From contig WGEY01000088.1 of the NCBI GenBank assembly GCA_015492495.1, positions 2,959 to 66,958 of the forward strand: a stretch of DNA of 64,000 nucleotides, read 5' to 3'. The DNA comes from Deltaproteobacteria bacterium (lineage in GTDB: Bacteria; Desulfobacterota; GWC2-55-46; DRQE01). Positions 1 through 29,863 of this stretch are shown here, one piece after another (the stretch's first letter is position 1; each line of letters starts with the position of its first letter). The translations under genes were made by a program, and so were the position numbers. The notes beneath the pieces are model-generated. The model made no database searches. It was given only the letters and a program-made list of their open reading frames with translations, and had not been told where the DNA came from.

Positions 1-629
1 TGGCCGAGCTTACCGGCGGCAGGCTTCACATAGCGCATGTCAGCACGCGCGGCTCGGTCGAGCTGGTGAGGTCCGCAAAGAAGCGGGGGCTCGATGTCAC
101 GGCAGAGGCCACCCCTCACCACCTGGCCCTGACGGACGAGATGCTCCTCGGCTATGATACGGACTGCAAGATGAACCCGCCGCTCAGGACCGTTGAAGAC
201 AGGGATGCCCTGAGGGAGGGGGTCAAGGACGGCACCATTGATACCATAGCGACAGACCATGCACCGCACTCGTCCATAGAAAAGGATGTAGAGTTCGACG
301 ATGCGGCATGCGGGGTCGTGGGGCTTGAGACGGCCCTCGGCGTGGTTCTGTCACTGGTGGATGACGGTGTCCTGACACTCGACGAGGCGATACGTGCGAT
401 GACCGTTAACCCGTCCCGTGCCGTTGGCATCGATGCCGGAACACTTGAGGTGGGTGGAGCCGCAGATATCGCGATAGTCGACCTTGAAGAACGCTGGACA
501 GTGGATCCTTCCCTCTTCAGGTCCAGGTCCAGGAATACTCCGTTCAAGGGCATGGAGATGAAGGGCAGGGTGATGAAGACGATAGTGGACGGTGAAGTGG
601 TGTACGATCGAGAGGGTAAATCCTCCTGA
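1..629 (+). CDS. pyrC: dihydroorotase, C-terminal part (5' end lies outside the window; reading frame starts at nt 3)
   Basis: Translation ...[15 protein letters not shown]...[33 protein letters not shown]... matches the metal-dependent amidohydrolase / dihydroorotase signature (HIAHVST; DHAPH). It lies upstream of carA-carB (pyrimidine context). Confidence 0.85.
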
Positions 630-718
630 GATGCACGGCGAACGCATGTATACAGGCATCATGGAAGATTCCCCGCGGCCTGCTCAGCGGGAGGCTTCAA
701 AAGAGGAAAAGGCGGAGA

Positions 719-1864
719 ATGGTACAAGGCATGAAGGAGCGTAAAAGGGCCATACTGGCGCTTGCCGACGGTACGGTCTTCGAGGGCTACTCCCTCGGGG
801 CCGAAGGCGAGGTCTCGGGCGAGGTCGTCTTCAACACGTCCATGACCGGCTACCAGGAGATACTCACCGACCCTTCCTACAGGGGACAGATAGTAACCAT
901 GACCTATACCCAGCAGGGCAACTACGGCCTGAACCCCGAGGACATCGAGTCATGGAGACCCTGGGTCGAGGGGTTCGTCGTAAAGGAGCCATCGCTGTAT
1001 CCCAGCAACTGGCGCTACCTGAAGGGGGGAGAGACGCTCGATGAGTACCTCGGGCGTAACGGCATAGTAGGGATATGCGGCATAGACACGAGGGCCCTTA
1101 CAAGGCACATAAGGGAGAGCGGGGCCATGCCGGGTGTTATCTCAACCGTCGACGACGTCGCCGAGAACCTGGTGGAAAAGGCCCGGAGCATACCGGGGCT
1201 TCTCGGCAGGGACCTCGTCAGGGAGGTCACGTGTACGGAGCCGTATACATGGGACGAGGGGCTGTGGAACATCGAAGGGGGCTATGGAACCGGCAGGGCC
1301 GGGGTAAGGCACAGGGTCGTTGCCTATGACTTCGGCATAAAACGCAACATCCTGAGGAACCTCTTCTCGGCCGGATGTGACGTGACGGTCGTTCCCGCGG
1401 ACACCCCCGCCGAGAAGGTACTCGAGATGGACCCTGACGGTATCTTTCTTTCGAACGGTCCAGGGGACCCCGAGCCGGTGAGCTACGCCCAGGAGAGCAT
1501 AAGGAAGCTCATGGGCAGAAAACCCATATTCGGGATATGCCTCGGCCACCAGCTCCTTGCGCTCGCCCTCGGCGCAAAGAGCTTCAAGCTGAAGTTCGGC
1601 CACAGGGGCGGAAACCAGCCGGTTAAGGACCTCACGACCGGCCGCGTCGAGATAACGGCCCAGAACCACGGCTTCGCCATAGACATGGATTCCATGAAGG
1701 GTGTTGCAAGGCTCACCCACGTAAACCTCAACGACAACACGGTGGAGGGCATGGAGGTCAGGGAAAAGAGGCTCTTCTCGGTCCAGTACCATCCAGAGGC
1801 CGCGCCCGGACCGCACGACTCATCGTACCTCTTCGAGAGGTTCGTGAAGATGATGGAGGGATGA
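719..1864 (+). CDS. carA: carbamoyl-phosphate synthase small (glutamine amidotransferase) subunit
   Basis: 381 aa. N-terminal CPSase small-chain domain plus class-I GATase motifs ([24 protein letters not shown]), immediately upstream of carB. Confidence 0.95.
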
Positions 1865-1904
1865 GATCCGGCGGCCCCTCCGGCTCATACAGGAAGATGA
1901 CATC

Positions 1905-4900: not shown

Positions 4901-5216
4901 TCGCTACCTGACGCAAAGGGGGATCGAGGCCGAGATGGTGTACAAGGTCATCGAGGGGATGCGTCCCCATGTGGTGGACAGGATAAAGAGCAACGAGATC
5001 TCCATGGTCATAAACACATCCTTCGGCGCAAAGAGCGTGGAGGACTCCTACTCCATAAGACGGACCTCGGTGGAGATGGGGATTCCGTACTTTACCACGA
5101 TCGCCGGTGCGCACGCAGCCACATGCGCCATAAAGGCGATAAAGAAGGAAGGGCTTGCGGTGAGGACCCTCCAGGAGTACCATGCCGGGGAGGCCGCCCT
5201 TCCAGGGACCGGATGA
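1905..5216 (+). CDS. carB: carbamoyl-phosphate synthase large subunit
   Basis: 1103 aa with two ATP-grasp halves (duplicated ...[10 protein letters not shown]... / ...[10 protein letters not shown]...) and a C-terminal MGS-like domain. Canonical CarB length. Confidence 0.97.
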
Positions 5217-5251
5217 GCCGCCAACACCGCAGTCCCGCCCTTTTCCGGTAT

Positions 5252-7720
5252 ATGCAGACCCGCGTGCAGGAACAGCTTTTCCGTATCATAGACTCCATTG
5301 AAAAACCGGTGAACTTCGCCTCGAGGGACGGTTTTGCCCGTATTTCGAGCATAAGGGGGCTCGAGTCCCTGGTTGTGTCCCTGTGTGAGGAGGCATCGGG
5401 GACCGGTCTGCCCGGGGCGGTGTTGCGAAGCCTCGATGAACTGAAGTCGCTTTTCGAGGGGTTCGACGGCCTCCCGGTCGAGGTGAAAAAGGAACGCATC
5501 CGGAGGGCCGGGGAGATACTGGCATTGCTGAGGAATGTCTCGGCGTACAGCGGCGAGGACCGAAATAGTATTCGTGTTCCACCGGTCTCCGAGGTCCTGG
5601 ACAGGCTCGGAAGGCTCTCCACCCCGCTCCGGTACGTAAAGGGTGTGGGGCCGAAGCTTGCCGAGAGGTTTAAGCACAAGGGGCTTTCCACGGTCGAGGA
5701 CCTGCTCTACTTCCTCCCGATCCGCTACGAGGACCGCCGTTTCATGAAGAGGATATCCGATCTGGAGCCAGGCAGGCCCCAGGCAGGCACCGGTGAGGTG
5801 CTGGCCTCCTCTGAGGTGAGGTACGGAAGGCGCAGGGTCTTCGAGGCGGTGGTCTCGGACGGCTCGGGTCTTTTGAGGTTGAAGTGGTTCAACTACAGGC
5901 TTCCGTACATGAAAAAGAGATACACACCCGGCCAGAGGCTCACCTTCTACGGGACGGTCTCCGTCTTCGCACACCGCAAGGAGATGGTGCATCCCGACGT
6001 AGAGCTCCTTGAAGCCTGCGGTGAAGATGAGGAGACAGCCCGCCAGGCTGAAGGTATAGTGCCCGTTTATTCGCAGGTAGAGAACTTTCACCAGAAGACC
6101 GTAAGGGGGCTTGTTCACCGGATAGTCGAGGGTTACGCCTCCGTTGCACCGGGCTGCGTGCCGGAGGAGGTCCTTGAGCGGTGCGGATTCATCCCCCTTA
6201 AAGATGCCTTTTTCGGCGTCCACACCCCCGGGGACACCTCCTCGGTGGAGCTTGCAAGAAAGAGCCTCGTATTCGACGAGCTCTTCTCCCTCGAACTCGG
6301 TCTCGCGCTCAGGAGGAGGGGGATAAAGAGGGAGAGCGGTCTTGCGATGGACGGTGCCGGTAGGCTCTGTAAGAGGTTCCTTGAGATGCTACCCTTCGAT
6401 CTCACCGGTGCCCAGAAGAGGGTCGTGGAGGAGATAAGGAAGGACATGGCCTCACCGCACCCGATGAACAGGCTTATACAGGGGGATGTTGGCAGCGGAA
6501 AGACGGTGGTCGCCTTTATGGCCGTTCTTCTGGCCGTGGAGTCGGGCTTCCAGGCGGCTATTATGGCACCCACTGAGATACTTGCGGAGCAGCATTTTCT
6601 TACGACCCGTTCGTATTGCGAGGCGTTGGGTATTGAGTCCGCCTTGCTCACGGGCGCCATGACGAAGTCCGAGAGGGAGAGGACGCTCCGTTCGGTGGGA
6701 GAGGGGGGCGTGGACCTTGTCATAGGCACGCACGCGCTCATCCAGAAGGGGGTGGCGTTCAGGAGGCTCGGGCTGGCGGTCATAGACGAGCAGCACCGCT
6801 TCGGCGTGGTGCAGAGGAGCGAGCTCAGGAAAAAGGGTACCGTGGGGGAAGAAGGTGGGCTGGGCGGTGTATCGCCCGACATCCTGGTCATGACGGCCAC
6901 CCCCATACCGAGGACGCTTTCGATGACCGTCTTCGGTGACCTGGACGTGTCCGTCATAGACGAGCTCCCCAGGGGAAGGAGGCCGGTCGAGACCCGGATA
7001 CTGAGGGAGAAGGACAGGGAAGAGGCGTACAGGATCATCCGCGACGAGGTAAGGGCAGGGGGGCAGGCCTATATCGTGTACCCGCTCGTCGAGGAGAGCG
7101 AGGAGCTGAGCCTGAGGGACGCCACCAACATGAAGGAGCACCTCGAAAGGGATGTCTTCGCAGACTTCAGGCTGGCCCTTCTCCACGGTAGGATGAAGTC
7201 CGCGGAGAAGGAGGCCGTGATGAAGGCGTTCAAGGCGGGCGAGGTCGACATACTGGTTTCGACCACCGTTGTGGAGGTGGGCGTTGACGTGCCGAATGCA
7301 ACGCTTATACTCATAGAGCACGCAGAGAGGTTCGGTCTTGCTCAGCTTCACCAGCTAAGGGGCAGGGTCGGCAGGGGCTCGAAGAGGTCCCTTTGTCTTC
7401 TCCTTGCCCAGTATACGCAGAGCGATCTTACGTGGAGGCGTCTAAAGGTCCTCGAACAGACCATGGACGGCTTCAGGATAGCCGAGGAGGATCTAAGGAT
7501 AAGGGGACCGGGTGACTTCATGGGAACACGACAATGGGGTATGCCCGCGCTCAGGATGCAGGATGCCCTGGCCGACCTACAGCTCCTCAAGATGGCAAGG
7601 GATGAGGCCTTCCGTTTCCTGGAGAGGGATCCGGAACTGTCTACAGCCGAGGGGCAGGCCATCAAGGCGGTGCTCAGGGCCAGGTGGAACGACAGGCTGG
7701 AGCTTGCCGAGGTGGGGTAG
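5252..7720 (+). CDS. recG: ATP-dependent DNA helicase RecG
   Basis: The six-frame ORF 4796-7720 runs back into carB. The first in-frame ATG after the carB stop is 5252 (MQTRVQEQLF...). Supporting motifs: wedge-domain region LRYVKGVGPKLAERFKHKGLSTVEDLLYFLPIRYEDRR, Walker A GDVGSGKT, DEQHRFGV, helicase C motifs, and the C-terminal RecG TRG region (QLHQLRGRVGRG). Confidence 0.9.
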   Translation: MQTRVQEQLFRIIDSIEKPVNFASRDGFARISSIRGLESLVVSLCEEASGTGLPGAVLRSLDELKSLFEGFDGLPVEVKKERIRRAGEILALLRNVSAYSGEDRNSIRVPPVSEVLDRLGRLSTPLRYVKGVGPKLAERFKHKGLSTVEDLLYFLPIRYEDRRFMKRISDLEPGRPQAGTGEVLASSEVRYGRRRVFEAVVSDGSGLLRLKWFNYRLPYMKKRYTPGQRLTFYGTVSVFAHRKEMVHPDVELLEACGEDEETARQAEGIVPVYSQVENFHQKTVRGLVHRIVEGYASVAPGCVPEEVLERCGFIPLKDAFFGVHTPGDTSSVELARKSLVFDELFSLELGLALRRRGIKRESGLAMDGAGRLCKRFLEMLPFDLTGAQKRVVEEIRKDMASPHPMNRLIQGDVGSGKTVVAFMAVLLAVESGFQAAIMAPTEILAEQHFLTTRSYCEALGIESALLTGAMTKSERERTLRSVGEGGVDLVIGTHALIQKGVAFRRLGLAVIDEQHRFGVVQRSELRKKGTVGEEGGLGGVSPDILVMTATPIPRTLSMTVFGDLDVSVIDELPRGRRPVETRILREKDREEAYRIIRDEVRAGGQAYIVYPLVEESEELSLRDATNMKEHLERDVFADFRLALLHGRMKSAEKEAVMKAFKAGEVDILVSTTVVEVGVDVPNATLILIEHAERFGLAQLHQLRGRVGRGSKRSLCLLLAQYTQSDLTWRRLKVLEQTMDGFRIAEEDLRIRGPGDFMGTRQWGMPALRMQDALADLQLLKMARDEAFRFLERDPELSTAEGQAIKAVLRARWNDRLELAEVG

Positions 7721-9522: not shown

Positions 9523-10947
9523 ATGTCGAAGCGTAAGACGCACGGGCTGAGCTTCCGTCATAGTGTCGACCGCATGGTCGACCGTGCCATAGAGGTTGTA
9601 GGCCTCGAGCCCGGGCTGGCTGACGCCATAAAGGGCTGTAACGCGGTCATAATGGTTCGGTTCCCGGTCGAGATCAAGGGCAAAATAGAGGTGTTTACGG
9701 GCTGGCGGGCTACTCACAGCATACATCGCCTCCCGGCAAAAGGAGGCATCCGTTACGCCACGACGGTGGACCAGAACGAGGTCGAGGCCCTGGCGGCGCT
9801 CATGACATACAAGTGCGCCATAGTCGATGTGCCTTTCGGAGGCTCCAAGGGCGGGTTGCATATAGACCCGCGCAAGTATACCAGGAGCGAGATGCAGCGC
9901 ATCACCCGGCGTTTCGCCAGGGAACTTGCGACAAGGGGGTTCTTGAGCCCTGCCACAAATGTGCCTGCACCCGACATGGGCACGGGTCAGCGCGAGATGG
10001 CCTGGATAACCGACACGTACAAGCACCTCTACCCGGAGGACATAAACTACTTTGCATGTGTTACCGGCAAACCCGTGCACATGGGCGGCATCCGCGGACG
10101 CGTGGAGGCGACCGGTCGGGGGGTACAGTACTCATTGCGGGAGTTCTTCCGCCACCCAGAGGATGTCAGGGCGGCCGGCCTGAGCGGGGGGCTCGGCGGA
10201 AAGCGCATAATCGTTCAGGGGCTCGGAAATGTGGGATACCATGCAGCCAAGTTCCTCTCGGAGGAAGACGGTGCCAGGATCGTCGCCATAGTGGAGCGTG
10301 ACGGGGCGATCGTCGACGAGAGAGGACTTCCTGTGGATGAGGTCAAGCAGTTCATGCTCGAAAACGGCGGTGTGAAGGGCTTTCCCGGTGCCGTGTACGT
10401 GGAGGACGGTGCCGGGGTCCTGGAGATGGAGTGTGATATACTCGTTCCGGCGGCGCTCGAGGGTGTGATACATAAGGAAAACGCCCCGCGCATCAAGGCG
10501 AGGCTAATAGCGGAGGCGGCAAACGGCCCCACGACATTCGACGCCGACATGCTCTTGAACGAGCGCGGTGTGGTGATCCTGCCGGATGCCTATGTCAATG
10601 CAGGGGGCGTGGTCGTATCGTACTTCGAGTGGGTGCGAAACCTCAACCACATCCGCTTCAGGCGCATGGAGCGAAGGCTCGAAGAGCGCCGCGGGCAGCA
10701 CATCATAAACGCCCTTCAGGAGGCCACCGGCAGGGATCTCCCCGAGTGGGTAATAAACGAGTTGACCCACGGAGCGGATGAGCTCGATCTCGTGCGCTCC
10801 GGCCTCGACGACACCATGCGGCTCGCCTACCAGCACATCCGTGAGCTCAAGGCATCGAACCCGAAGGTTACCGACTACCGTACCGCTGCGTACGTCATAG
10901 CCATAGAGAAGATAGCGCGCTCCTACCTGGATACAGGGGTATACTGA
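9523..10947 (+). CDS. gdh: glutamate dehydrogenase (Glu/Leu/Phe/Val dehydrogenase family)
   Basis: 474 aa. Catalytic-Lys motif KCAIVDVPFGGSKGG and a Rossmann GLGNVG motif. RBS AGGAGA upstream of the ATG. Confidence 0.9.
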   Translation: MSKRKTHGLSFRHSVDRMVDRAIEVVGLEPGLADAIKGCNAVIMVRFPVEIKGKIEVFTGWRATHSIHRLPAKGGIRYATTVDQNEVEALAALMTYKCAIVDVPFGGSKGGLHIDPRKYTRSEMQRITRRFARELATRGFLSPATNVPAPDMGTGQREMAWITDTYKHLYPEDINYFACVTGKPVHMGGIRGRVEATGRGVQYSLREFFRHPEDVRAAGLSGGLGGKRIIVQGLGNVGYHAAKFLSEEDGARIVAIVERDGAIVDERGLPVDEVKQFMLENGGVKGFPGAVYVEDGAGVLEMECDILVPAALEGVIHKENAPRIKARLIAEAANGPTTFDADMLLNERGVVILPDAYVNAGGVVVSYFEWVRNLNHIRFRRMERRLEERRGQHIINALQEATGRDLPEWVINELTHGADELDLVRSGLDDTMRLAYQHIRELKASNPKVTDYRTAAYVIAIEKIARSYLDTGVY

Positions 10948-11076: not shown

Positions 11077-13779
11077 CTATCCCGTCGTATTACCTTCGAT
11101 GAGCTCTCTTACGGCCCTCAGCAGATCCGTCAACGTGTATGGTTTCTGCAAGAAGCGAAACCCCTTTTCGCGTATAAGCTCCAGTTGCGACTTCCGTCCC
11201 GTGTAGCCGCTTGTCAAGAGCACCCGGAGATCCGGCTTGCTGGAGAGGAGCCTGTTGACCAGTTGAACGCCGTTTTCATCTGGCAGGACGACGTCGCTGC
11301 AGACAAGGTGGATCCGGTCCTTTTCCCTTTCGAATGTGTCCATGGCCTCCTTGGCGTTCGTTGTCTCAAATACGGTGTAGCCGTTTTTGCGGAGCAGCGA
11401 CGCGCACGACCTGAGCACGATCTCTTCGTCCTCCACCAGAAGAATCCGCTCTCCTTTCCCGTTGAGCTCCTCTTTGGGGATGTCCCTTGTCTTGTGTTCG
11501 CTCCTTTCCATTGCACGGCAGGCGGGCAGGTAGACCTTGAAGGATGTACCTTTTCCTTCTTCACTCTGAACATTGATCCAACCTTCGTGCTGTTTGACGA
11601 TGCCATAGACCACGGCAAGCCCCAGCCCGGTGCCCTTTCCGACATCCTTTGTGGTGAAGAACGGCTCGAAGATGTGCTGGATGACATCCTTGTCCATGCC
11701 TTCACCGGTGTCCTCGACGGTGAGGCAGACAAAGCTCCCCGGCCGTGAATAGGGTATCAGCCTGCTTGAGGCTTCATCGATGACAACATTTTCCGTCCTG
11801 ATGGTAAGTATACCGCCGTGCTGCATGGCATCGCGTGCGTTTATGGCGAGGTTCATCACAACCTGCTCGATTTGGGCAGGGTCGATCTTCACCCTCGGCA
11901 GATCGGCCGCGAGCTCGGTTGCAAGCTCGATGTCCTCGCCTATGAGACGTAAAAGGAGCTTTTTTATGTCCGTGACGAGGTCGTTGATATCAAGCACCTT
12001 TGTCTGGAGCACCTGCCTGCGGCTGAAGGCCAGGAGTTGACGCGTAAGCGATGCAGCCCTCTCTGCGGACTTTCTGATCTCTTCAACGTTTTTGCGTAGC
12101 CGTTCTTGGTCGCCGAAGCTGTCCAGGACGAGCTCTGAGTATCCCATTATCGCTGTTAGCAGGTTGTTGAAGTCATGTGCAACTCCACCTGAGAGCTTTC
12201 CGATGGCCTCCATCTTCTGTGCCTGGAGCAGCTGGATCTGGAGCCGCTTTTTCTCTTCCTCATAGAGTTTTTTCTGTGTAACGTCTTCCTTGAGTGCGAC
12301 AAAGTGAGTGATGGTTCCATCTGCGTCGGTTATCGGTGAAATACACGTATGCTCCCAGTAAAGCTCGCCGTTCTTTTTCCTGTTGTAAAGCTCTCCGGTC
12401 CATACGCCGCCGGATGTGATCGTCTTCCACAGCTCTCTGTAGAACTCCGGCGGGTGGTGGGAGGACTTGAGGAACCGCGGATTCCTTCCTATGACCTCTT
12501 CGCAGGCGTAGCCGGTCAGCTCCGTGAACCTTGGGTTGACGTATTCGATGTTACCCCTGGTGTCCGTGATGATGACGCTGCTCGGGCTCTGTTCCACCGC
12601 GTGAAAGAGCTTGCGAAGCTGCTCCTCGGTCTTCTTGCGCCCGGTGACGTCTGTGTAGAATTCTATGCGTCCACCGGCATATAGCCCGGACCTGATCGGC
12701 TGGCTCCAGTGCTCGAGATGCCGCTCCTTGCGTTCGCCTTCGGGCAGCACATGGCACTCGAAGCTCCTTATGGATGTATTGTCCTCGTATGTCTCCAGTA
12801 TCCTCTCTGCAAAAGCTTCGGGTTCCTCGAAGATATACTTTATCCGTTCGCGGACGAGCCGCCTGTTGTCCATTCCGATGATATCTTCTCTTCTCAGGCC
12901 GAAGAACTGTTCAAGGGCCAGGTTCAGCCAGACGATCCGGAACCCTGAGTCGAGTATGACGATACCCACTCCGGAGCTGTCGAGGACATCGTTTGTCAGT
13001 GAACGGTGCTTTGCTTCACTCTCCTGTAGCGCCCTCTCGGCTCGTTTGCGGTCAGTGATGTCGCGCCATATGCACCTGCAGAACGATACGTTTCCATGTT
13101 CATCACGCACCGCCGATACCTTCAGGCTCACGTCTATCCTGCTACCGTCTTTTCTTTTCAATTGCAACTCGGCATTATCTGCCTCGTCCGTCTCGACGAA
13201 CAGGAGGCCGTCCTTTCCCGGATCCTCGACACATTCCATATGGTATATGTCCGAGACTGGGCGGCCTACGAGCTCGTCCTTGCTGTAGCCCAGCGTTGCG
13301 GCCAGCGTCTGGTTGCACTGAATGATCTTTCCGGTCCTGGCGTCAACTGATCCGAACATATCAGGGGCGTAGTCATACAGGTCCTGGTACTCCCTTTTGG
13401 ACCTTCTCAGTTCACGCTCCCTTTTTTCCAGGGCATCGACCTTTTCGGAAGCAGCCCGCACATTCGAGTAGAGCAGCGCCGAAAGGGCGAAGACTATGAA
13501 AGTAATGCTGTTTATGCCTCCGCTGACGGGTGAGAGCGCATGCCACACATCGGGATACCCGGCGGTCATGAGCACCCTTTTGACTATGTGTGCAACCGAA
13601 CGGGAGATAGCGAAGACGGCGAGGGCAAGCGTCTGGGCGTAGAGGAAAGTATAGAGGGCGGTATAGCGTCTCTTCCTGTAGATCTCCTTCATGAGCCTTA
13701 CACCGTAAATGCTCATGAGGATCATGGTTGACGAGCCGAGGACGTCTATCAGCCATACCAAGGACATCGGCGCCTGCAT
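11077..13779 (-). CDS. hybrid sensor histidine kinase / response regulator (N-terminal TM segments, multiple PAS domains, HisKA, HATPase_c, C-terminal receiver)
   Basis: The long ORF 11077-14040 was trimmed to the ATG at 13779, which has a strong RBS (AGAAGGAGGAGCCGTGATG). H-box AHDFNNLLTAIMGYSEL; G-boxes (DTGEGM, GTGLGLAVV); receiver ILLVEDEEIVL...LVCSDVVLPDENG. Confidence 0.85.
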   Translation of the reverse strand: MQAPMSLVWLIDVLGSSTMILMSIYGVRLMKEIYRKRRYTALYTFLYAQTLALAVFAISRSVAHIVKRVLMTAGYPDVWHALSPVSGGINSITFIVFALSALLYSNVRAASEKVDALEKRERELRRSKREYQDLYDYAPDMFGSVDARTGKIIQCNQTLAATLGYSKDELVGRPVSDIYHMECVEDPGKDGLLFVETDEADNAELQLKRKDGSRIDVSLKVSAVRDEHGNVSFCRCIWRDITDRKRAERALQESEAKHRSLTNDVLDSSGVGIVILDSGFRIVWLNLALEQFFGLRREDIIGMDNRRLVRERIKYIFEEPEAFAERILETYEDNTSIRSFECHVLPEGERKERHLEHWSQPIRSGLYAGGRIEFYTDVTGRKKTEEQLRKLFHAVEQSPSSVIITDTRGNIEYVNPRFTELTGYACEEVIGRNPRFLKSSHHPPEFYRELWKTITSGGVWTGELYNRKKNGELYWEHTCISPITDADGTITHFVALKEDVTQKKLYEEEKKRLQIQLLQAQKMEAIGKLSGGVAHDFNNLLTAIMGYSELVLDSFGDQERLRKNVEEIRKSAERAASLTRQLLAFSRRQVLQTKVLDINDLVTDIKKLLLRLIGEDIELATELAADLPRVKIDPAQIEQVVMNLAINARDAMQHGGILTIRTENVVIDEASSRLIPYSRPGSFVCLTVEDTGEGMDKDVIQHIFEPFFTTKDVGKGTGLGLAVVYGIVKQHEGWINVQSEEGKGTSFKVYLPACRAMERSEHKTRDIPKEELNGKGERILLVEDEEIVLRSCASLLRKNGYTVFETTNAKEAMDTFEREKDRIHLVCSDVVLPDENGVQLVNRLLSSKPDLRVLLTSGYTGRKSQLELIREKGFRFLQKPYTLTDLLRAVRELIEGNTTG

Positions 13780-14224
13780 CACGGCTCCTCCTTCTCGTCC
13801 TTGAACGACTTTATCCCCATGACAAAGGCCGCCATCGCACCGACCGAGAGGAAGTGATCGAGGATCTTGCCCGCATAGAACACCTTCGCAATCAATGTGG
13901 ATATGTCGATCTTCTGGGTCCATGCACGCACGGAGCCGGAAAAGAACTCGGGCGATAGCGGTTCTCTTATCCAGTGGACCGTAAATGTATCGATGTTCCA
14001 TAGAAGGAACAGGAAGGCCGCTATGCCGATGAACCTCCACCCCGGGGCAGCGTTGGGACCCGCTTTATCTGTATGAAAAGGACGGCCATGGAAAACATGA
14101 AGAAGAGGTGGGCGATCTGATGGGTGTAGAGCCCCTCTGGATCTGCATGTTCCTGGGTAGCCAACGCATCCGGACAGGCTATCAATATCAACAGGACGAC
14201 GACGGGAATAACCTTTTTAAGCAC
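13779..14224 (-). pseudogene. small polytopic membrane protein gene with an apparent 1-nt frameshift in a C4G4 homopolymer; translationally coupled (TGATG) to the sensor kinase
   Basis: Frame A (GTG 14224 with RBS GGAAG; MLKKVIPVVVLLILIAC...HQIAHLFFMFSMAVLFIQIKRVPTLPRG) stops at 14021. Frame B continues protein-like (WRFIGIAAFLFLLWNIDTF...FLSVGAMAAFVMGIKSFKDEKEEP*) to a TGA overlapping the kinase ATG. Inserting one nt in ccccgggg (14041-14048) fuses them into a protein of about 148 aa and 4 TM segments. Confidence 0.35.
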
Positions 14225-14623
14225 CGCTATACTTCCTCGGGGTACGCGTGTCCGGTTGCAGTGACCATGTACCCCTTTCCGGTGACGGACTGACCCGGGA
14301 CCTTCGTGAGCCACCCCCTGTTTGGCGTGGTTGTAGTGACGGACGTCGTTGCGCAGACTTATGTAACCGTTCCCCACCAGTTATAATTCGGCGGAATTCC
14401 GGAAATCTGTAGATGAGATTAAAGCGTGGCAACATATGTCCGCCGGGCGGTGCTCTACGTACTTAACGATGCGTTTTTGATGCCGTGGCCGGTGTAAGGA
14501 TCGTGGGCGCAGTTATATGCGGAAGGAAGGTCAAAGGCACATGCGGCAGGTAGGTTACCCGAGATGCCTTCGTTGCAAAAGACGCTAAAGCGCCCGAGGT
14601 GTGCTCGACCTCGCACCGTATCT

Positions 14624-15655
14624 TCAGAACCACAGGAGGAACTGATCTGCGGGAAGGCTTCTTTGAAGGAGAGAGGTGAGGGGACGCGAAAGGTTCAGAA
14701 GGGATGTGGCGGCCTTGCCGGTTCGTCCGAGGTGCCTGCCGAGTATCCCGGTCAGGTCGGAGAGTGCATCGAGTATCCAGGAGACAGGCTGGTTACGCTC
14801 GGTCCGGCCGAGCCCTCGGGCAAGGCCCCTTGCCTTGGTTATTCTTTTCTCGGCCATCCCAAGGGCCGAGCCGATATCCGTGCCGCTCATGATTATGTGG
14901 TTTTTCCCGGAGCGTTTGCGGTCGTACTCGAGGTCCATGGCGTCGTCTATCAGCTGGCCGGCCTCGCCAGTGAGCCTTCCTATCTCGGCGTACCGCTGCC
15001 TTACGTCACAGCCGGCGCTTGCCGTGGGAAAGAGCACGCCTATGACCCTGTCTCCGCAGGACTTCCTGTATAGGTATGTTTGGGGATCGGTCGCCTCCTC
15101 GCTCGATATGAGTGTCTTAATGACATCGAAGAGGCGGCTCCTTATGGCGCGCAGCTCTTCGAGGTTTATCTCACCGCGGCGAACCTCCTCGGCCAGGGCC
15201 ATGTCCATGAGGTCCCTGTACGCATGGGAGATATACAGGAGCCTTTCACCGAACCTGTCGTAGCTGGCCTCCTTGTCCAAGAGGTCATCCATACACGCGA
15301 CCATGGATGAGAAGAAGCCTGCGGCCACCTGCAGCTCACCCCTCGATCCGAGGATATCGGCCATCACGCCGATGCAGACCTCGGTGAGGGCGCCGCCGTC
15401 GGCGTTTAGTGGATAATCTCCGATCATGCCGCGGGTATAGGCGAGCTCTACCGCTGGCCTTATGACTGGACCTGCGAGGTCGAGTTCACTCCTCATGATG
15501 TGGGATGCAACGGGGTCCGTCTCTCGGAGGTAGGGGGGTGTCCTTGGCTTTGCGGATATGGAGAGGTAGTCGCGTATTATCAGGCCACGCCGGAGCGAGG
15601 ACCTATTCCTTAGCCTTCTTATGGAAGCCGGTGGTATGGTATTCGACGGCGCCAT
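14624..15655 (-). CDS. hypothetical protein, possible class-I isoprenoid synthase-like fold (two Asp-rich DDxxD-like motifs)
   Basis: 343 aa. ...VACMDDLLDKE... and ...QLIDDAMDLEYD... lie about 120 aa apart, the spacing seen between the first and second Asp-rich motifs of trans-isoprenyl diphosphate / terpene synthases. Otherwise divergent. Confidence 0.4.
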   Translation of the reverse strand: MAPSNTIPPASIRRLRNRSSLRRGLIIRDYLSISAKPRTPPYLRETDPVASHIMRSELDLAGPVIRPAVELAYTRGMIGDYPLNADGGALTEVCIGVMADILGSRGELQVAAGFFSSMVACMDDLLDKEASYDRFGERLLYISHAYRDLMDMALAEEVRRGEINLEELRAIRSRLFDVIKTLISSEEATDPQTYLYRKSCGDRVIGVLFPTASAGCDVRQRYAEIGRLTGEAGQLIDDAMDLEYDRKRSGKNHIIMSGTDIGSALGMAEKRITKARGLARGLGRTERNQPVSWILDALSDLTGILGRHLGRTGKAATSLLNLSRPLTSLLQRSLPADQFLLWF

Positions 15656-15898
15656 GGGTTTAAATGCATGGCGGGCTCATTACCTGAAGCCCGCCGCGTG
15701 TTGGCGGGTGAATATGATACAAACTCCCTTGCGTTCGGTGGCCATGCAGCTTGCTGCATGATGCTTCAAAAGATACAACAATGCGGCCAGGCATGCAAGG
15801 GGCTTTTAAAAACTCCACAGCTCCTTTTGTTAAGGTTTTCCCTTGTGGTGCCTGTCTGGCGGAGGTCTTAAGGGTTTTCCTTGTTATTCCGCTTGCTT

Positions 15899-17125
15899 CT
15901 ATGTCTCATCGATGTTTCTTGCACCTGTAGGCCTCCAGGAGGGGGATATGACGCCTGTTTCACCTCTGCTTTCAAGGATGGTCCCCCAGGTAAGAGTAAA
16001 CTCGCCGAAGCTTTCGTTGACCGTATCCATGGCCCGAAGGAGATCGGTCCGTCTCCTGTCCTCTTCAAAGAGACTTTCCTGGCAGAGGTGCCTTGCAAGT
16101 ACGTCCATGGCTATACCTATGAGCCTTACGGCCTTTTTGAGCTCTATGGAGTCCATTATCCTCAGTGCATGGAGGTATACCGCGCGGGTGTCGTTTGTTG
16201 GGCAGGGGAGAGGCCGGCTCCTTGTGAAGGTATGGAAGTCGCTGTATCTGACGGTGAGTATGAGCCTTGTTCCGGCAAGGCCGTGCTTTCTTGCCCTGCT
16301 GCATACCTTCTCGGAGAGCCTTAGGAGGTACGCCTTAAGGGTTTTCGTATCAGAGGTGTTACGGGGCAGTGTGATGGAGTGTCCCACGCTCCTTGTCCGC
16401 TCCTGTTCTTCCACGCTTGCAACCGGGCTCGTATCTATCCCCTGTGCCATGAGCTTGAGCCTCTCTCCGGTCATGCCGAAGCTGCTTTTCAGTATGCCCG
16501 CCGGACAGTCCGCAAGCTGACCGCAGGTCCTGATGCCCATTGCGTTCAGGCGTCCCGCGAGCTTTCGTCCTATGCCGCAGAGGCGCTCGACGGGCAGCCT
16601 TTCCAATACACTTCGCACCTCTCCTTCCTCTATGAGCACCAGGCCGTCGGGCTTTTGCATGGACGAGGCGAGCTTGGCCATGAGCTTGTTAGGGCCTATA
16701 CCAACGGATGAGCCGAGCCCGGTCTCTTCCCTTATCCTCTTTTTTATGGAGAGCGCTATGGTCCGTGGCGTGCCGAAGAGGGAGGTCGAGCCTGTAACAT
16801 CGATGAACGCCTCGTCTATGGAGAATGGTTCGATCTTGGGGCTGAAGCCCTCAAGTATGGCCAGTATGCGCCTAGAGGTGTCGGTGTAGATGCGGTTGTT
16901 GGCCTTTACGAAGACGACCTGCGGACAGAGCCTTCTTGCCTCGTATATGTTCATCCCCGTCCTGACCCCGTACCGCCGGGCATGGTACGAGGCGGTCGTT
17001 ATAACGGTCCTGTGGCCCCGGCCTATAACGGCCACCGGCCTCGAGCGGAGCGCCGGGTTGCGCCTCTGTTCTATCGATGCGAAGAAGGCGTCCATGTCTA
17101 TGTGGAGTATGGTGCGTGCGGCCAT
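15899..17125 (-). CDS. dinB: DNA polymerase IV (Y-family translesion polymerase)
   Basis: ORF 15899-17185 trimmed to the ATG at 17125 (MAARTILHIDMDAFFASIEQRRNPALRSRPVAV...), which has a GGAGG RBS. Classic DinB N-terminus and SIDEAFIDVTG motif. Confidence 0.85.
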   Translation of the reverse strand: MAARTILHIDMDAFFASIEQRRNPALRSRPVAVIGRGHRTVITTASYHARRYGVRTGMNIYEARRLCPQVVFVKANNRIYTDTSRRILAILEGFSPKIEPFSIDEAFIDVTGSTSLFGTPRTIALSIKKRIREETGLGSSVGIGPNKLMAKLASSMQKPDGLVLIEEGEVRSVLERLPVERLCGIGRKLAGRLNAMGIRTCGQLADCPAGILKSSFGMTGERLKLMAQGIDTSPVASVEEQERTRSVGHSITLPRNTSDTKTLKAYLLRLSEKVCSRARKHGLAGTRLILTVRYSDFHTFTRSRPLPCPTNDTRAVYLHALRIMDSIELKKAVRLIGIAMDVLARHLCQESLFEEDRRRTDLLRAMDTVNESFGEFTLTWGTILESRGETGVISPSWRPTGARNIDET

Positions 17126-17126
17126 G

Positions 17127-17420
17127 CTACGCCTCCACCTGCTCGAGCCTCCACACCATGGTGTAGGGGTTGTAGGATAGCTCAAAGAGTGTTGTCCCGT
17201 CGGTCACCGAGAAGTGGACTATGCTCGTGTGTCCGTGCCGCGTGCGCCACGTGTAGGTTATCTCCTTCACGGGATATACCCTGCCGTTCCACCTGAACTT
17301 CACGGGCCTTACCCCATTGTCGAAGACGGCGATGACCTTTATGGGTTCCTGAAGATGCATGGCGAGCGAATGAAATCTCCTTGAACGTGCATTGCGAGCG
17401 CCTGTCTGCGTGTGGTTCAC
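17127..17420 (-). CDS. small conserved-looking hypothetical protein translationally coupled to dinB
   Basis: Stop TAG at 17127-17129 sits 1 nt before the dinB ATG, and its last codons (GTGGAGGCGTAG) form the dinB RBS. The listed GTG start is 17420; the alternative ATG at 17360 (MHLQEPIKVIAVFDNGVRPVKFRWNGRVYPVKEITYTWRT...) is more likely, giving about 77 aa. Confidence 0.4.
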   Translation of the reverse strand: MNHTQTGARNARSRRFHSLAMHLQEPIKVIAVFDNGVRPVKFRWNGRVYPVKEITYTWRTRHGHTSIVHFSVTDGTTLFELSYNPYTMVWRLEQVEA

Positions 17421-17433
17421 CCTAACAGGCAGG
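17401..17433. repeat. inverted-repeat element CCTGTCTG-(17 nt)-CAGGCAGG
   Basis: Arms CCTGTCTG / CAGGCAGG. The same arms recur 100 bp away with a 3-nt loop. Confidence 0.5.
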
Positions 17434-17502
17434 CATTTCCCGAAGCCCGCTACGGGTTAGCGAGCGAAATACAATCGGATAATTCCTTACATGAGAAGAT
17501 TC

Positions 17503-17521
17503 CCTGTCTGCTACAGGCAGG
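17503..17521. repeat. inverted-repeat element CCTGTCTG-CTA-CAGGCAGG (second copy)
   Basis: Same arms, including the same T/C asymmetry, as 17401-17433. Lies between lexA and the small-ORF/dinB unit. Confidence 0.5.
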
Positions 17522-17570
17522 CCTTAGCCCACTCGATGGAGCTTCAATTTGAAGGTCTTTTGCAGTGCAT

Positions 17571-18200
17571 CTATTTATTACTGGACCGTCCGTCCATGTG
17601 TTTTATTACCGATACGACCTTGCCTATGATTGAGAACTCCCCGGCCTCCAGTCTGATGGGCTCCATCTGCGGGTTTTCGGGCTTCAGTACGACAGCCCTA
17701 CCCGTCCTGAAGAACCTCTTTACAGTGGCATCGCCGTCCACCATGGCAACGACTATTTCGCCGTTGGATGCGTCGGCCTGCGGCCTTACTAGGACGTAAT
17801 CGCCGTCCTCGATGCCCGCATCCACCATGCTTTGGCCCTCGACCCTCAACATAAACGCCCCCCTGCACTTGAAAAAGTCCGGATCAAGGGTGACGTAGCC
17901 GGTGATGTCCTCTACGGCCGGATGGGGCTTGCCGGCCCTGACCCTGCCGGCTATCGGCACCTGTACGGCCCCGGTGCGTGACAATATGTCTATGGCCCTT
18001 GAACGGTTCGCGCTCCTCCTTATGAAGCCCTTTTTTTCAAGGGCCTCGAGGTGCTTTCTCGCGTTCTGGGGGCCTTTGATGCCGAACCTTACGCATATTT
18101 CCCTCAAGGAGGGGGCATAGCCGTGCTCGGAGATGAACTCCCTTATGAACTCCAGAACCCCTTTCTGCCTGTGGGTGAGCCTTCTTTCATCCATGAACAT
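17571..18200 (-). CDS. lexA: LexA repressor (SOS regulator, S24 peptidase)
   Basis: 209 aa. N-terminal wHTH (LTHRQKGVLEFIREFISEHGYAPSLREI), Ala-Gly cleavage region (VPIAGRVRAGKP), and C-terminal S24 domain with Ser (VEGQSMVDAGI) and Lys (TVKRF). Confidence 0.9.
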   Translation of the reverse strand: MFMDERRLTHRQKGVLEFIREFISEHGYAPSLREICVRFGIKGPQNARKHLEALEKKGFIRRSANRSRAIDILSRTGAVQVPIAGRVRAGKPHPAVEDITGYVTLDPDFFKCRGAFMLRVEGQSMVDAGIEDGDYVLVRPQADASNGEIVVAMVDGDATVKRFFRTGRAVVLKPENPQMEPIRLEAGEFSIIGKVVSVIKHMDGRSSNK

Positions 18201-18299
18201 GCATGCTGGCGCCCGCCTGGGCGGGAACGCTCGCAGTCAGGCGATTCGTCAGCCAAGCGTGCATTCCCCGCCTTTAGGCAGAGTATTGTGTTATCTTTT

Positions 18300-18317
18300 G
18301 GGTAACTTTTGTTATCC
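18300..18317. promoter_or_regulatory. candidate LexA operator: near-palindrome GGGTAAC-TTTT-GTTATCC (core TAAC-N4-GTTA)
   Basis: About 100 bp upstream of the lexA start. Shares the AAC-N4-GTT core architecture of many LexA boxes. Flanked by a further GTTATC half-site at 18290-18295. Confidence 0.3.
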
Positions 18318-18464
18318 TATAGTAAGGCGAAACCTCCTGGATGTCAAGGTGTAAATGCGGTATCTGTAGGGAATGTTCGGATTTGTTCCCATTGGGCCAA
18401 CGGCTGCCTGGGCACGTGGATACCCCGAAGGCACGAAACGTTTTCCGCTGGTTCTGTTTTTTTA

Positions 18465-18493
18465 TTGACACGGTTCGGTCCAGCTAATAAAAT
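18465..18493 (+). promoter_or_regulatory. possible sigma70-type promoter (TTGACA - 17 nt - TAAAAT) about 215 nt upstream of ORF 18709
   Basis: Consensus -35 and near-consensus -10 in an AT-richer stretch. The intervening leader contains the inverted repeat CTTCACG...CGTGAAG. Confidence 0.3.
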
Positions 18494-18708
18494 GAAGGTG
18501 ACTTCACGTAAGCCTTTCACGGTGAGCTGCGTGAAGTCCGTGTGCCAACGCATCTTCACCATTAAGGATACGCATCATCACGGCTTTCACTTCAACTTTG
18601 ATCATCACATCTTGACGGGTTCTCCACAGCTTTCCGTGTTCGCTCACGGCTGCTACACCTTTGAGATGCATCAAGGATCCACTTTTTGACATACCACTTT
18701 GATATACC

Positions 18709-19638
18709 ATGGCGGGAGTTTCGCATCTGTGGGAGCCCGATTCAGGGCTTCTCAGGGATATAGAGTCAATGGCCCGAGATTACAGGCGCAGGGCCGAGGA
18801 GCATCTCAAGCCCATTGTATCCTCATACTATCCGGCGCTTCTCGATGGCGGCGGGGAATACCGCAAGATGATAGAGCTCTCCACCAAGATGACAATGGTA
18901 GGCCATGCATGCACGGAGATAGGCGGATACCGCTTCGACGAGAGGAGGCGGAGGATGAGCGCGCTCTTCGGTGCGTGCTGCTTCATCGGCGACAGCTTCA
19001 TAGATGACTTCGGTGATGATGCGGCAAGGGAGTACATCGAGCGCTACGAGCTCTTGCTGACCAGGGGCTGGTTCGATATAAGGAACGACCGCGAAAGGCT
19101 GTTCTTCGTCATCCTCACAAGGCTCTTCGGGGAGCGTGACGTGCTTGACCCTATGCTTAGACAGGCGATATTCTCGCTCTTCCTCGCCCAGAAGAGGGAC
19201 GTTGATCTGAGGCTTGATCCCGGGTGGCTGAAAGTGCTCAGGCGCAGGTCAAGGCTCGATCAACTCAGGGTGTGCGCGCGTGACAGGAGCGGGCATGCCA
19301 TCACGGTGCTTTCGCTTTTCCTGGTTCCGGGCTTTCCGCTCAGGTACCACCACCTGCTGTACACGGCCGGTGCGCTCATAATGTACATAGACGACCACGG
19401 CGACTGTTACTCGGACCTGTACCACAACAGGGTCACCTACATGAACCAGGTGAAAAACCCTTCGGTCACCCTTCTCAGGGCCTTTGCCAGGGGCACCGAG
19501 CGCCTGAGAAAGGGGCTTCCCGAGGGCAGGGGACGGGAGATACTCCTGGCGTTCCTGTACAGGTACTTCATCACCAGGATCGAAAAGCACCGGCTGGAGA
19601 GGGACCGGGGAAGGTACTCTTGGACAGTGTATGAGTAG
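18709..19638 (+). CDS. hypothetical protein, possible isoprenoid-synthase-like fold (Asp-rich motifs IDDFGDD and IDDHGD)
   Basis: 309 aa. ...CFIGDSFIDDFGDDAAREY... and ...LIMYIDDHGDCYSD... lie about 135 aa apart. Architecture resembles ORF 14624-15655 but the sequences are divergent. Confidence 0.4.
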   Translation: MAGVSHLWEPDSGLLRDIESMARDYRRRAEEHLKPIVSSYYPALLDGGGEYRKMIELSTKMTMVGHACTEIGGYRFDERRRRMSALFGACCFIGDSFIDDFGDDAAREYIERYELLLTRGWFDIRNDRERLFFVILTRLFGERDVLDPMLRQAIFSLFLAQKRDVDLRLDPGWLKVLRRRSRLDQLRVCARDRSGHAITVLSLFLVPGFPLRYHHLLYTAGALIMYIDDHGDCYSDLYHNRVTYMNQVKNPSVTLLRAFARGTERLRKGLPEGRGREILLAFLYRYFITRIEKHRLERDRGRYSWTVYE

Positions 19639-27954: not shown

Positions 27955-29808
27955 ATGCGCCGTCCTCATGTGTTGCTCTTATTCCTCGTCCTTTTGCCCG
28001 GGACGCTCCTGGCAAAGGACGTGCCTTCACGTAAACACGCCTACGGTCCCGGCGGTGTATACAACTACCAGCTCTCCTTATACAACTTCCTGACGGGCCG
28101 CTACACCTCTCCCCCGCTCCCTACCGGCCTTTCCATCGAAGCCCCCGATCCTCCGGATGTAGATATATTCTACCCGCTTGCAAGGCTTCCGGAGCTTCAG
28201 AGGGTTTACTTCGCCAGACGATACCAGAACTTCGTTACCGGAGATGGTGCCGGAGACAGGGTGCCGCATCTGGTGTGGCTAATGGACGGGCTCTACAGGG
28301 ATGGTGGTCACGAATACCTGTTGACAGTGGCGGACGGGAATGCGGATGAGGCGGATGCTGCCGCTTACTTCAGGGGGATGAGCCTCCTGAGGCTGAACAG
28401 AACGAAGGAGGCCGTAAGGGAGCTTGCGCTGGTGCCGGAACAGAGCGGCCTCTATCCCTACGCAAGGGTGGCGATGGCACAGATCCATGTTATGCGCAAG
28501 AACTTCGACGCCGCTGAAGACGAGCTCAGGCGCATAGCTTCGCCCAGGTATGAGGACCTCTCCGACAGGATATCGATACTTCTCGGCAAGGTCCTTTTTG
28601 AAAAGGGAGACTTTTCGACCTCGCTTCTTGAGTTCATGAAGGTCCCACACTCAAGCCCGTACTACAAGGACGCATTGATGGGAATGGCTTGGAGCCTCGT
28701 AAAGCTCGGCTCCTTCGAGTCTGCCATACCCCTTATAAAGGAGATGAACCCGGTTCCGCCCTACAGCAGTGAGGAGTGGGAAGGCCTTGTCATGCTCGGC
28801 TACTGTTATCTTAAGCTCGGCAGGTTCGAAGAGGCCTCGGTGCACTTCAACGATCTCTTGGATGCGGTAGCCGAGGAGAAGGACGGGCTTGAGCGGATCA
28901 TGGCGGATGAGTCCACCCCCGGACGCTACCTTGACTTTCTTCTCGGAACCGAGCCTCCGCCGGGCTCCACCCCGCTTACGGAAGAGGAGAGGTTCTATTA
29001 CTCCATGCTCGTGGAGGATACCGTTTCAAGGAGGCTCGCAGACGAGTACGCTGTACTGAGGGATACGATCTCCGCCCTGCGCGCGAGAATCAGGGATATA
29101 GAGCAGATACGGACCTATCTGATGAACATGATAAAGGATATGGAGGACCTTTTCTTCGAGGTCGACATGGAGACGAGGTTCATCAAGAGGATACTGCAGA
29201 AGATAAGCAGAAAGGCAGAATACGGTGTAAGGGGGGCAGCCGGCATCCTGGAGGAAAACCGCCTGTTCTTTGCCAACGTGGAAAAGGAGCTGTACAGGCA
29301 CTGGGCCATGATAAAGAAAAGGAAGATCAGCGATGCAGAGAAGGAGGTCGTAAGGCTTCTTCTCTACGAGGGCGGCGAGGCTCTCGACTGCACCACATCC
29401 CCGCTCATATGTACCATAGTCGACATGGCCGAGTCTGAAACATCCTCGCTGAGCGGGGAAGACCTGACCAAGCTGAAGAAGGTAATAAAGGTGCTCGAGG
29501 CCATTGCAAAGGACCTTGCAAGCGTGCGCAACGGCGAAATGATCGAGTACGAGAGGGAGATAGAGGAACTCAGGGCGTATACGCGGGCCATGGTTGAAGA
29601 TGCGTGGGATGTTATAGGACAACTCGAGGCGTTGAGGAAGAGGATAAAGGTGGCCGTCATAAAGGCCGACAACGACGCACGCACGAGGATGGAGGCCATC
29701 CTGGCCGGCCTTGTGAAACAGAGGCTCGAGGAGGTCAACTACGAACTTTCAAACTTCAGGGCCTACATCATGACAGGGCTTGTAAACTCCCAGCGCGCCC
29801 TGGAGTAG
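27955..29808 (+). CDS. secreted TPR-repeat protein with coiled-coil C-terminal region
   Basis: ATG 27955 follows an AGGTGAG RBS. Signal peptide MRRPHVLLLFLVLLPGTLLA. TPR-like helical repeats. Confidence 0.7.
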   Translation: MRRPHVLLLFLVLLPGTLLAKDVPSRKHAYGPGGVYNYQLSLYNFLTGRYTSPPLPTGLSIEAPDPPDVDIFYPLARLPELQRVYFARRYQNFVTGDGAGDRVPHLVWLMDGLYRDGGHEYLLTVADGNADEADAAAYFRGMSLLRLNRTKEAVRELALVPEQSGLYPYARVAMAQIHVMRKNFDAAEDELRRIASPRYEDLSDRISILLGKVLFEKGDFSTSLLEFMKVPHSSPYYKDALMGMAWSLVKLGSFESAIPLIKEMNPVPPYSSEEWEGLVMLGYCYLKLGRFEEASVHFNDLLDAVAEEKDGLERIMADESTPGRYLDFLLGTEPPPGSTPLTEEERFYYSMLVEDTVSRRLADEYAVLRDTISALRARIRDIEQIRTYLMNMIKDMEDLFFEVDMETRFIKRILQKISRKAEYGVRGAAGILEENRLFFANVEKELYRHWAMIKKRKISDAEKEVVRLLLYEGGEALDCTTSPLICTIVDMAESETSSLSGEDLTKLKKVIKVLEAIAKDLASVRNGEMIEYEREIEELRAYTRAMVEDAWDVIGQLEALRKRIKVAVIKADNDARTRMEAILAGLVKQRLEEVNYELSNFRAYIMTGLVNSQRALE

Positions 29809-29863
29809 GTATGGACGGATGTTGGAGCGCTGTGATCGAATATCATCCCGCCTGATCCACCGT

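Follow-up and report, generated by a model that had tools for sequence, protein, structure and literature searches.

Two unrelated proteins with a predicted class I isoprenoid-synthase fold beside lexA-dinB in a deltaproteobacterial contig, one of them at the head of a conserved operon

Class I synthases that are invisible to sequence models form an active area of discovery, in which each new subclass has so far given new chemistry (PMC11234867). The motifs reported for two of the non-canonical classes are DYLDNLxD and DY(F,L,W)IDxxED in class IB and D(N/D), ND and RxxKD in class ID (Abe et al. 2024, PMC11234867). To the isoprenoid-synthase superfamily also belong ComQ and PalQ, which use a prenyl diphosphate donor to prenylate peptides that are encoded beside them (PMC5331326, PMC10853753). 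ComQ lacks the second Asp-rich motif, and a DDxxD in that place was reported to be unsuitable for Trp prenylation (PMC5331326). Here we analysed two open reading frames (ORFs), called A and B, which lie on either side of lexA and dinB in a 64,000-nucleotide stretch of DNA from a Deltaproteobacteria bacterium (contig WGEY01000088.1 of assembly GCA_015492495.1, positions 2,959 to 66,958; hereafter the window). The explanation that we prefer, with a probability of roughly 0.7, is that A and B both belong to the class I isoprenoid-synthase superfamily and are evolutionarily separate, that they flank lexA-dinB by coincidence, and that B heads an operon that has spread among bacteria. On this reading A adds modestly to a known superfamily, and B together with its horizontally spread operon is the new part.

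Motifs, predicted folds and relatives of the two proteins

Both ORFs are real, and the motifs quoted for them in the initial annotation are present, namely M122-DDLLD127 and I236-DDAMD241 in A, and I98-DDFGDD104 and I227-DDHGD232 in B. From these motifs the annotation had proposed a terpene- or prenyl-synthase-like identity, and it had named two outcomes that would speak against it: Asp motifs that are not conserved in homologues and a predicted fold of another kind. We looked for both. In A the motifs read D123-D124-x-x-D127 and D237-D238-x-x-D241-x-x-x-D245, and every one of these Asp residues is invariant among the 28 A-family sequences aligned (42-55% identity). In B they read D95-x-x-x-D99-D100 and D228-D229-x-x-D232-x-x-x-D236, again with every Asp invariant among the 30 B-family sequences aligned. 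The distance from the first Asp of one motif to the first Asp of the other is 114 amino acids (aa) in A and 129 aa in B. Judged by these alignments, the Asp motifs of both families are not chance. Other residues are conserved along with them. R191, G195, Y286, R290 and K293 are invariant in B and R285 is nearly so, while R55, R147, K198 and N252 are invariant in A, where they might substitute for the basic residues that bind isopentenyl diphosphate (IPP).

The AlphaFold2 models, built on the family alignments, are confident for both proteins, with a predicted local distance difference test (pLDDT) of 89.6 and a predicted template modelling score (pTM) of 0.90 for A, and values of 91.6 and 0.90 for B. 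Both are predicted to be all-alpha bundles that superpose on solved class I enzymes, and the motifs lie at the C-terminal ends of predicted long helices, where they also stand in known class I enzymes (helices 108-127 and 216-240 in A, 78-99 and 211-231 in B). Thus neither protein is modelled with a non-terpene-synthase fold, and the models together with the invariant motifs support the identity that had been proposed. On counting the helices that separate the motif helices in the models, we found three in A and four in B. Three such helices occur in farnesyl diphosphate (FPP) synthase and four in bacterial terpene cyclases, so the modelled helix number of B resembles that of the cyclases. The structure scores of B are nearly flat across the subclasses, being 17.8 for the Sat1646 diterpene synthase, 17.7 for MoeN5, 17.4 for tetraprenyl-beta-curcumene synthase, 16.9 for epi-isozizaene synthase, about 16 for several isoprenyl diphosphate synthases (IDS) and 14.4 for CrtM. 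On the B model, MoeN5 and DabA score as well as the cyclases do, and these two enzymes act by moving prenyl groups onto acceptors. In a Foldseek search with B, each of the 50 matches listed was a class I isoprenoid enzyme, with modest E-values (best E-value 1.6e-3; best TM-score 0.61/0.64, to Sat1646).

Among 5.8 billion proteins we found about 38 homologues of A, their named taxa being mostly Thermodesulfobacteriota, and a search with the A-family profile found nothing beyond these original members. The same profile matches hexaprenyl and octaprenyl diphosphate synthases of the PDB over 'GxaxQLiDDxxDYxxD..gkN' (E = 1.9e-5), and the context of the second motif of A, GEAGQLIDDxMD, aligns with GTAFQLVDDIMD of 4jxy. 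The motifs of trans-IDS, a DDx2-4D and a DDxxD in a GxxFQxxDDxxD context, are both found in A (DDLLD / DDYLD); in B the context differs. When the A profile was compared by hhalign with E. coli IspA (an approximate query), the region of the second motif alone aligned. The claim of the initial annotation that canonical polyprenyl-synthase signatures are lacking stands for B and in part for A, since the second motif of A matches long-chain synthases. Compared with trans-IDS (PF00348, which covers FPP, geranylgeranyl diphosphate and hexa- to nonaprenyl synthases), A differs in its first-motif region and IPP signatures, which cannot be aligned, in its short motif spacing, in an extra N-terminal helix and in an invariant C-terminal '...WF'. 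Taken from sequence and model together, A appears to be a strongly diverged, stand-alone relative of trans-IDS from a small family, in which the members with a named taxon are mostly Thermodesulfobacteriota. The most apt description is a divergent, IDS-like superfamily member, a level that the automated naming at NCBI has already reached, as two members of the family carry the name 'class 1 isoprenoid biosynthesis enzyme'.

For B we obtained 372 homologues. In the 120 of them that were listed, every source name is 'hypothetical protein' and no Pfam domain is present, and all names retrieved for members from RefSeq, UniProt and JGI are 'hypothetical' or 'uncharacterized'. B gave no sequence match to Pfam or NCBIfam models or to PDB chains, and no hidden Markov model or sequence match to the terpene synthase families; it likewise has no sequence match to the trans-IDS of PF00348. 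Going by these searches, B belongs to no curated family. Its profile, searched against 1.84 billion cluster representatives, recovered a single full-length cluster at 50% identity plus fragments, and also weak relatives (E 1e-6 to 1e-3), of which the ten that were scanned have no Pfam domain. Among the distant relatives, P0200, P0202, P0204, P0205 and P0210 are about 290-340 aa long, lack Pfam domains and carry pairs of D/N-rich motifs, mostly DDxxD with (N/D)DxxDxxxD; a 'KGG' segment occurs in four of these five. Such relatives hint at a broader clade of class I-like proteins that is unannotated. In comparison with the bacterial class I terpene cyclases (Sat1646 pimaradiene-type, epi-isozizaene and pentalenene synthases), the first motif of B is D-x-x-x-D-D and not a conserved DDxxD/E, its second motif is all Asp, and its operon contains no P450 or other typical tailoring gene. 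The triad D228/D232/D236 (i, i+4, i+8), the invariant R191 and the pair R285-Y286 would resemble those of the cyclases as placed in the alignment. The motifs DSFxDDFG and IDDHGDxxxD of B differ from those reported for class IB (the BalTS / YtpB family) and class ID, these two classes being the ones covered by our motif comparison. A fixed 13-gene operon such as that of B has no counterpart in the study on the non-canonical class I synthases IB-IF (BalTS / tetraprenyl-beta-curcumene synthase, AsR6, PeuTPS; PMC11234867). The idea of non-canonical class I terpene synthases, recognised through structure models (PMC11234867), fits B. In the literature searched, whose coverage is incomplete and is not proof of absence, we found no description of the B family or of its operon.

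The initial annotation had treated A and B as a pair that brackets an SOS module from opposite strands. They do flank lexA-dinB, and B is divergent from lexA across an intergenic region of 508 bp; A lies on the same strand as dinB and lexA, 243 bp downstream of dinB. We considered and rejected paralogy of the two proteins, as BLASTP detected no similarity, the hhalign probability was below 1% and only the second motifs aligned. On searching 55 B loci with lexA, dinB and A as queries, nothing was found within 10 kb, and queries with the B operon, lexA and dinB found nothing in the available DNA of three independent loci of A homologues. A and B do not co-occur in any of the A and B loci compared. 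Because the adjacency to the SOS genes is absent from the other loci, it is lineage-specific and most simply coincidental, and the idea of a pair built around an SOS module is not supported. Across the three independent loci A has no conserved neighbour, A alone being common to all. A small DUF7836-like protein lies near the A homologue in two of the three (L004, 11318-11575; L005, 3441-3614; 61% identical) and is absent from the window and from L003.

The operon downstream of B

B is followed by a conserved run of genes that the initial annotation had passed over (Table 1). The genes overlap by 8, 4 and 4 nt (start on stop) at three junctions in the window, and from this layout B would be the first, translationally coupled gene of an operon of 12-13 genes. 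B occurs with collinear genes on the same strand, as far as the contigs reach, in the loci of 55 GTDB species and in metagenome contigs, and it is gene 1 in all loci except L013. In L013, a gammaproteobacterial metagenome-assembled genome (MAG), B starts at 10001, downstream of the other genes at 420-7317, which is the sole rearrangement among the 55. The 55 species carry at least ten phylum-level labels, although their B proteins form one 50%-identity cluster. These labels are Deltaproteobacteria (SEEP-SRB2), Syntrophobacterales, Gamma-, Alpha- and Betaproteobacteria, Nitrospirota, Nitrospinota, Acidobacteriota, Actinomycetes, Solirubrobacterales, Verrucomicrobia (Verrucomicrobiota), Dehalococcoidia (Chloroflexota), Calditrichaeota, Methylomirabilis and one uncultured Bacillaceae MAG. 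That the order of the genes is retained across so many phylum-level labels implies horizontal spread of the operon. We found no mobile-element signature for it, no consistent association with a tRNA or an integration site, and no match to A or B in a plasmid collection. Cultured carriers are Caulobacter sp. BK020 (B protein WP_132094602.1), Paraburkholderia panacisoli DCY113 (B protein WP_149674245.1), Rhodospirillales URHD0017 and Nitrospira sp. T9. Within the operon B is the most conserved protein (45-66% identity).

In most genomes the linkage of B to an enzyme of the geranylgeranyl reductase family (TIGR02032; archaeal lipid reductases, BchP/ChlP and MenJ) is obligatory. Outside the window this operon flavoprotein is about 490 aa long, has the Pfam domain GGR_cat and passes the cut-off of TIGR02032 (GG-red-SF, 158.8 bits) with 198.7 bits in L036 and 194.7 bits in L010. 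It shares these two features with the family and stays below the equivalog cut-offs (133 against 700 bits for MenJ; 104 against 580 for DGGGPL reductase). It further differs by an extra C-terminal region, by a tandem duplication in L036 and by its truncation in the window. There the full-length flavoprotein matches only at 23979-24137, and just 17 nt separate the stub from the following conserved gene, which begins at 24214. In Caulobacter sp. BK020 (L036, 14450-17361) the operon has two tandem paralogues of the reductase family, of 487 and 483 aa. Several loci labelled Alphaproteobacteria, such as L035, L037, L042, L043, L045 and L046, have the same enlarged gap between the first reductase gene and gene 11.

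The remaining operon proteins gave nothing significant against Pfam, NCBIfam, PHROGs and PADLOC where scanned, the stub with its flavin adenine dinucleotide (FAD) domain excepted, and the profiles of genes 5, 6, 8 and 12 found no match among all PDB sequences. No membrane helix or signal peptide is predicted in any operon protein. Conserved patterns can nonetheless be described for many of them. Gene 2 has a zinc-ribbon-like His/Cys pattern, 'LHR..C..IP ... C..C.P' (C-x-x-C-x-P), and, after a variable linker, a conserved helical C-terminal segment, 'D..YG..S..DQFG.VL.ERG.EYR', with no family match. Gene 3 has the core 'RLGP.V....G..C.E...AL.G...LN..VD.M.SDLA..VYP'. Gene 6 contains short repeats of the type 'IDPL.V(E/D)', for example 'HIKELNQIDPL.VESLRID.VRNIDPL.VD.FNVT.LP.VN', and matches nothing in PDB or Pfam. 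The products of genes 11-13 are strikingly rich in Cys. Genes 11 and 12 have paralogous C-terminal domains, of which that of gene 11 is about 95 aa long and ends in '...ARxRWCE..CC'. In gene 12 a Cys-rich 'GFC..C.HP..KC.CG.RECRKE.KELLV' is followed by 'GGGCCVHLS.EY' and by the end 'ARVRWCEVFSC'; as this ORF overlaps gene 11 by 95 nt at its start, the protein probably begins at M53 (~24966). In L011 and L016 gene 11 has lost its internal and its terminal Cys residues jointly, a pattern that points to a shared metal site or a disulfide. An Rfam scan of 13500-27500, including the 5′ leader of B, gave no match.

Proposed activity and competing explanations

Under our preferred explanation, catalytic competence and an isoprenoid substrate are inferred for both proteins. 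In A as in B, the two invariant Asp clusters would coordinate a cluster of Mg2+ ions, through which an allylic prenyl diphosphate would be bound by its diphosphate group and ionised. The acceptor of the carbocation formed would be IPP, an internal double bond or another group. For B, the most likely activity is that it ionises a prenyl diphosphate by means of Mg2+. In the B operon the flavoprotein of the geranylgeranyl reductase family would next reduce double bonds in the prenyl product, a step that would have been lost in the lineage of the window. For A, prenyl transfer or condensation is favoured because of its structural preference for IDS and its second motif of the long-chain type.

Several observations weigh against this explanation. 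In A, the match to PF00348 is sub-threshold (17.5 bits, cut-off 27) and confined to aa 217-252 around the second motif, and the NCBIfam polyprenyl synthase equivalogs reach at most 14 bits against cut-offs of 412-600. Of the basic IPP-binding signatures (the GGKRxR loop, RRG after the first motif, KT and the Lys after the second motif), GGKRxR and RRG could not be aligned in A by hhalign against the approximate IspA, and as the signatures were not located, chain elongation by A is unproven. In B, residue 103, the third acidic position of the first motif, is not conserved and may be D, E, A, H or P. Structurally B is equidistant from all subclasses, so that it would be 'cyclase-like' solely through its modelled helix count and through the putative sensor Arg and RY pair placed by alignment. 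No canonical IDS gene was found within 10 kb of any B operon or in the window, though tblastn with the approximate IspA query is a weak test. The other operon proteins look structural or metal-binding, which would be a poor fit to a classical terpene gene cluster. Lastly, TIGR02032 is not matched in the window, where only the 78-aa N-terminal stub is left, and the reductase gene has no match in L015, a genome labelled Nitrospirota; from the stub and this non-detection, either the reduction step is dispensable or these operon copies are decaying.

Because the B operon looks unlike a classical terpene cluster, we keep prenylation of an operon-encoded protein by B among the explanations. B would then be a protein or peptide prenyltransferase like ComQ and PalQ, acting on a conserved Cys or Trp near the C-terminus of the products of genes 11-13, or of 3 and 10, with the flavoprotein saturating the chain; we consider this unlikely. 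The precedent of ComQ and PalQ for acting on a partner encoded next door (PMC5331326, PMC10853753) speaks for it, and by analogy B could be seen as a superfamily member with candidate acceptor proteins encoded alongside. So do the near-invariant ends '...RWCEVFSC' or '...RWCE..CC' of genes 11/12 and the Cys-rich tail of gene 13. Lipidation could confer membrane affinity on operon proteins that have no predicted membrane segment or signal peptide, and if these proteins are substrates or partners of B, it is easier to see why they and B are strictly inherited together. On the other hand, B keeps both Asp motifs invariant, unlike ComQ (PMC5331326), which has the first motif and a 'pseudo-SARM' only. 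By its appearance the RWCE motif would be the final strand in a folded domain and not a flexible tail, and the joint loss of Cys in gene 11 (L011, L016) fits a metal site or disulfide better than a lipidation site. The B locus also has no small ComX-like precursor and no ComP/ComA genes, and no sequence similarity to ComQ or PalQ was detected. An extension of this idea, which we regard as a long shot, makes the B operon a mobile, self-contained system in which B prenylates the soluble Cys/Trp-rich proteins of genes 11-13 and the flavoprotein saturates the lipid. If that were true, the product would be a lipidated protein assembly or coat in or on the cell, and the operon would represent an undescribed kind of bacterial protein-lipidation or organelle-like system.

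It is also improbable, in our estimate, that A, B or both are non-catalytic members of the fold that serve as a scaffold, a regulatory subunit or a binder of lipid or diphosphate. The small subunits of heteromeric prenyl diphosphate synthases are precedents for such members, A has no recognisable IPP-site signatures, and the B operon is dominated by structural-looking proteins, its sole clear enzyme partner being dispensable in the window. Yet known non-catalytic subunits have lost their Asp-rich motifs, whereas here both families keep all Asp residues of the two motifs invariant, for B across at least ten phylum-level groups, and B is more conserved than any other operon protein. Far less credible still is membership of A, the B operon or both in the LexA regulon, by which DNA-damage signalling would be linked to isoprenoid or membrane remodelling. 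The arrangement invites the idea, since consensus scans gave no promoter or terminator match between dinB and A, and B and lexA share their divergent intergenic region. The comparative context largely refutes it, as neither the 55 B loci nor the three independent A loci show the adjacency. Moreover, an inverted-repeat scan of the lexA-B intergenic region, to which the test for an operator was confined, found one short palindrome beside the lexA start, about 250 bp upstream of the promoter match of B, and no operator candidate near that match.

Returning to the preferred explanation of two separate superfamily proteins, it is B that carries most of its interest. B is a candidate for a synthase of the kind that sequence models miss, as it has no curated model, is extremely conserved, occurs in scattered taxa and is always accompanied by about a dozen proteins without detectable homology. 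Its distribution and conservation point to a selectable, transferable function that nobody has named. As the operon is present in cultured strains, this is directly testable. The importance of A is smaller; it widens the divergence known for the prenyltransferase fold by a family that comes almost wholly from uncultured, metagenome-derived bacteria.

Coordinates and surroundings in the window

The positions of both ORFs, the SOS genes, the operon and the flanking genes are collected in Table 1.

Table 1. Features around A and B, with positions counted from the first letter of the window
Feature	Positions	Strand	Description
Glutamate dehydrogenase	9523-10947		Flanking gene; no evident link to A or B
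Hybrid PAS/histidine kinase/receiver protein	11077-14040	minus	Flanking gene; no evident link to A or B
ORF A	14624-15655	minus	343 aa; divergent protein with predicted trans-prenyltransferase (IDS-like) class I fold
dinB	15899-17185	minus	IMS domains (Pfam) and NCBIfam DNA polymerase IV equivalog
97-aa ORF	17127-17420	minus	Between lexA and dinB; sub-threshold DUF6504 match, E = 5e-4
lexA	17571-18200	minus	TIGR00498, 228 bits; Pfam and NCBIfam support
lexA promoter match	18347-18319	minus	Consensus match; divergent from the promoter match of B
Sigma-70-like promoter match (TTGACA-17-TAAAAT)	18465-18493	plus	About 215 nt upstream of B; consensus match only, no functional evidence
Operon	18709-26376	plus	B, then genes 2 to 13
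ORF B	18709-19638	plus	309 aa; protein of predicted class I terpenoid-synthase fold, unannotated family; operon gene 1
Gene 2	19631-20317	plus	228 aa; start overlaps the end of B by 8 nt; collinear in the B loci whose available DNA includes it
Gene 3	20386-20601	plus	71 aa; acidic, isoelectric point 4.2
Gene 4	20598-21032	plus	144 aa; overlaps gene 3 by 4 nt; no detectable homology
Gene 5	21107-21850	plus	247 aa; no family or PDB sequence match
Gene 6	21872-22747	plus	291 aa; N-terminal ~180 aa conserved, C-terminal tail variable
Gene 7	22744-23064	plus	106 aa; His/Cys-rich N-terminus; in only some homologous operons
Gene 8	23127-23924	plus	265 aa; Lys/Ala-rich N-terminus; sub-threshold match only (Cep192_D6, E = 0.036)
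Reductase stub	23961-24197	plus	78 aa; FAD-binding Rossmann N-terminus only; Pfam FAD_binding_3 at aa 7-56
Gene 10	24214-24423	plus	69 aa; conserved in only some operons
Gene 11	24440-24904	plus	154 aa; His/Cys/Tyr/Pro-rich N-terminus
Gene 12	24810-25625	plus	ORF of 271 aa
Gene 13	25843-26376	plus	177 aa; last conserved gene; conserved helical segment, Cys-rich C-terminal tail

Downstream of the operon two large TPR proteins (flank 27877-32656) have no evident link to A or B. Between the promoter match and the start codon of lexA lies a near-palindrome, GTTAT-N7-GTAAC (18286-18306), about 180 bp upstream of the promoter match of B, which on its letters could be a LexA operator. The small ORF between lexA and dinB runs into the annotated start of dinB, and when it is counted the SOS cassette may comprise three genes.

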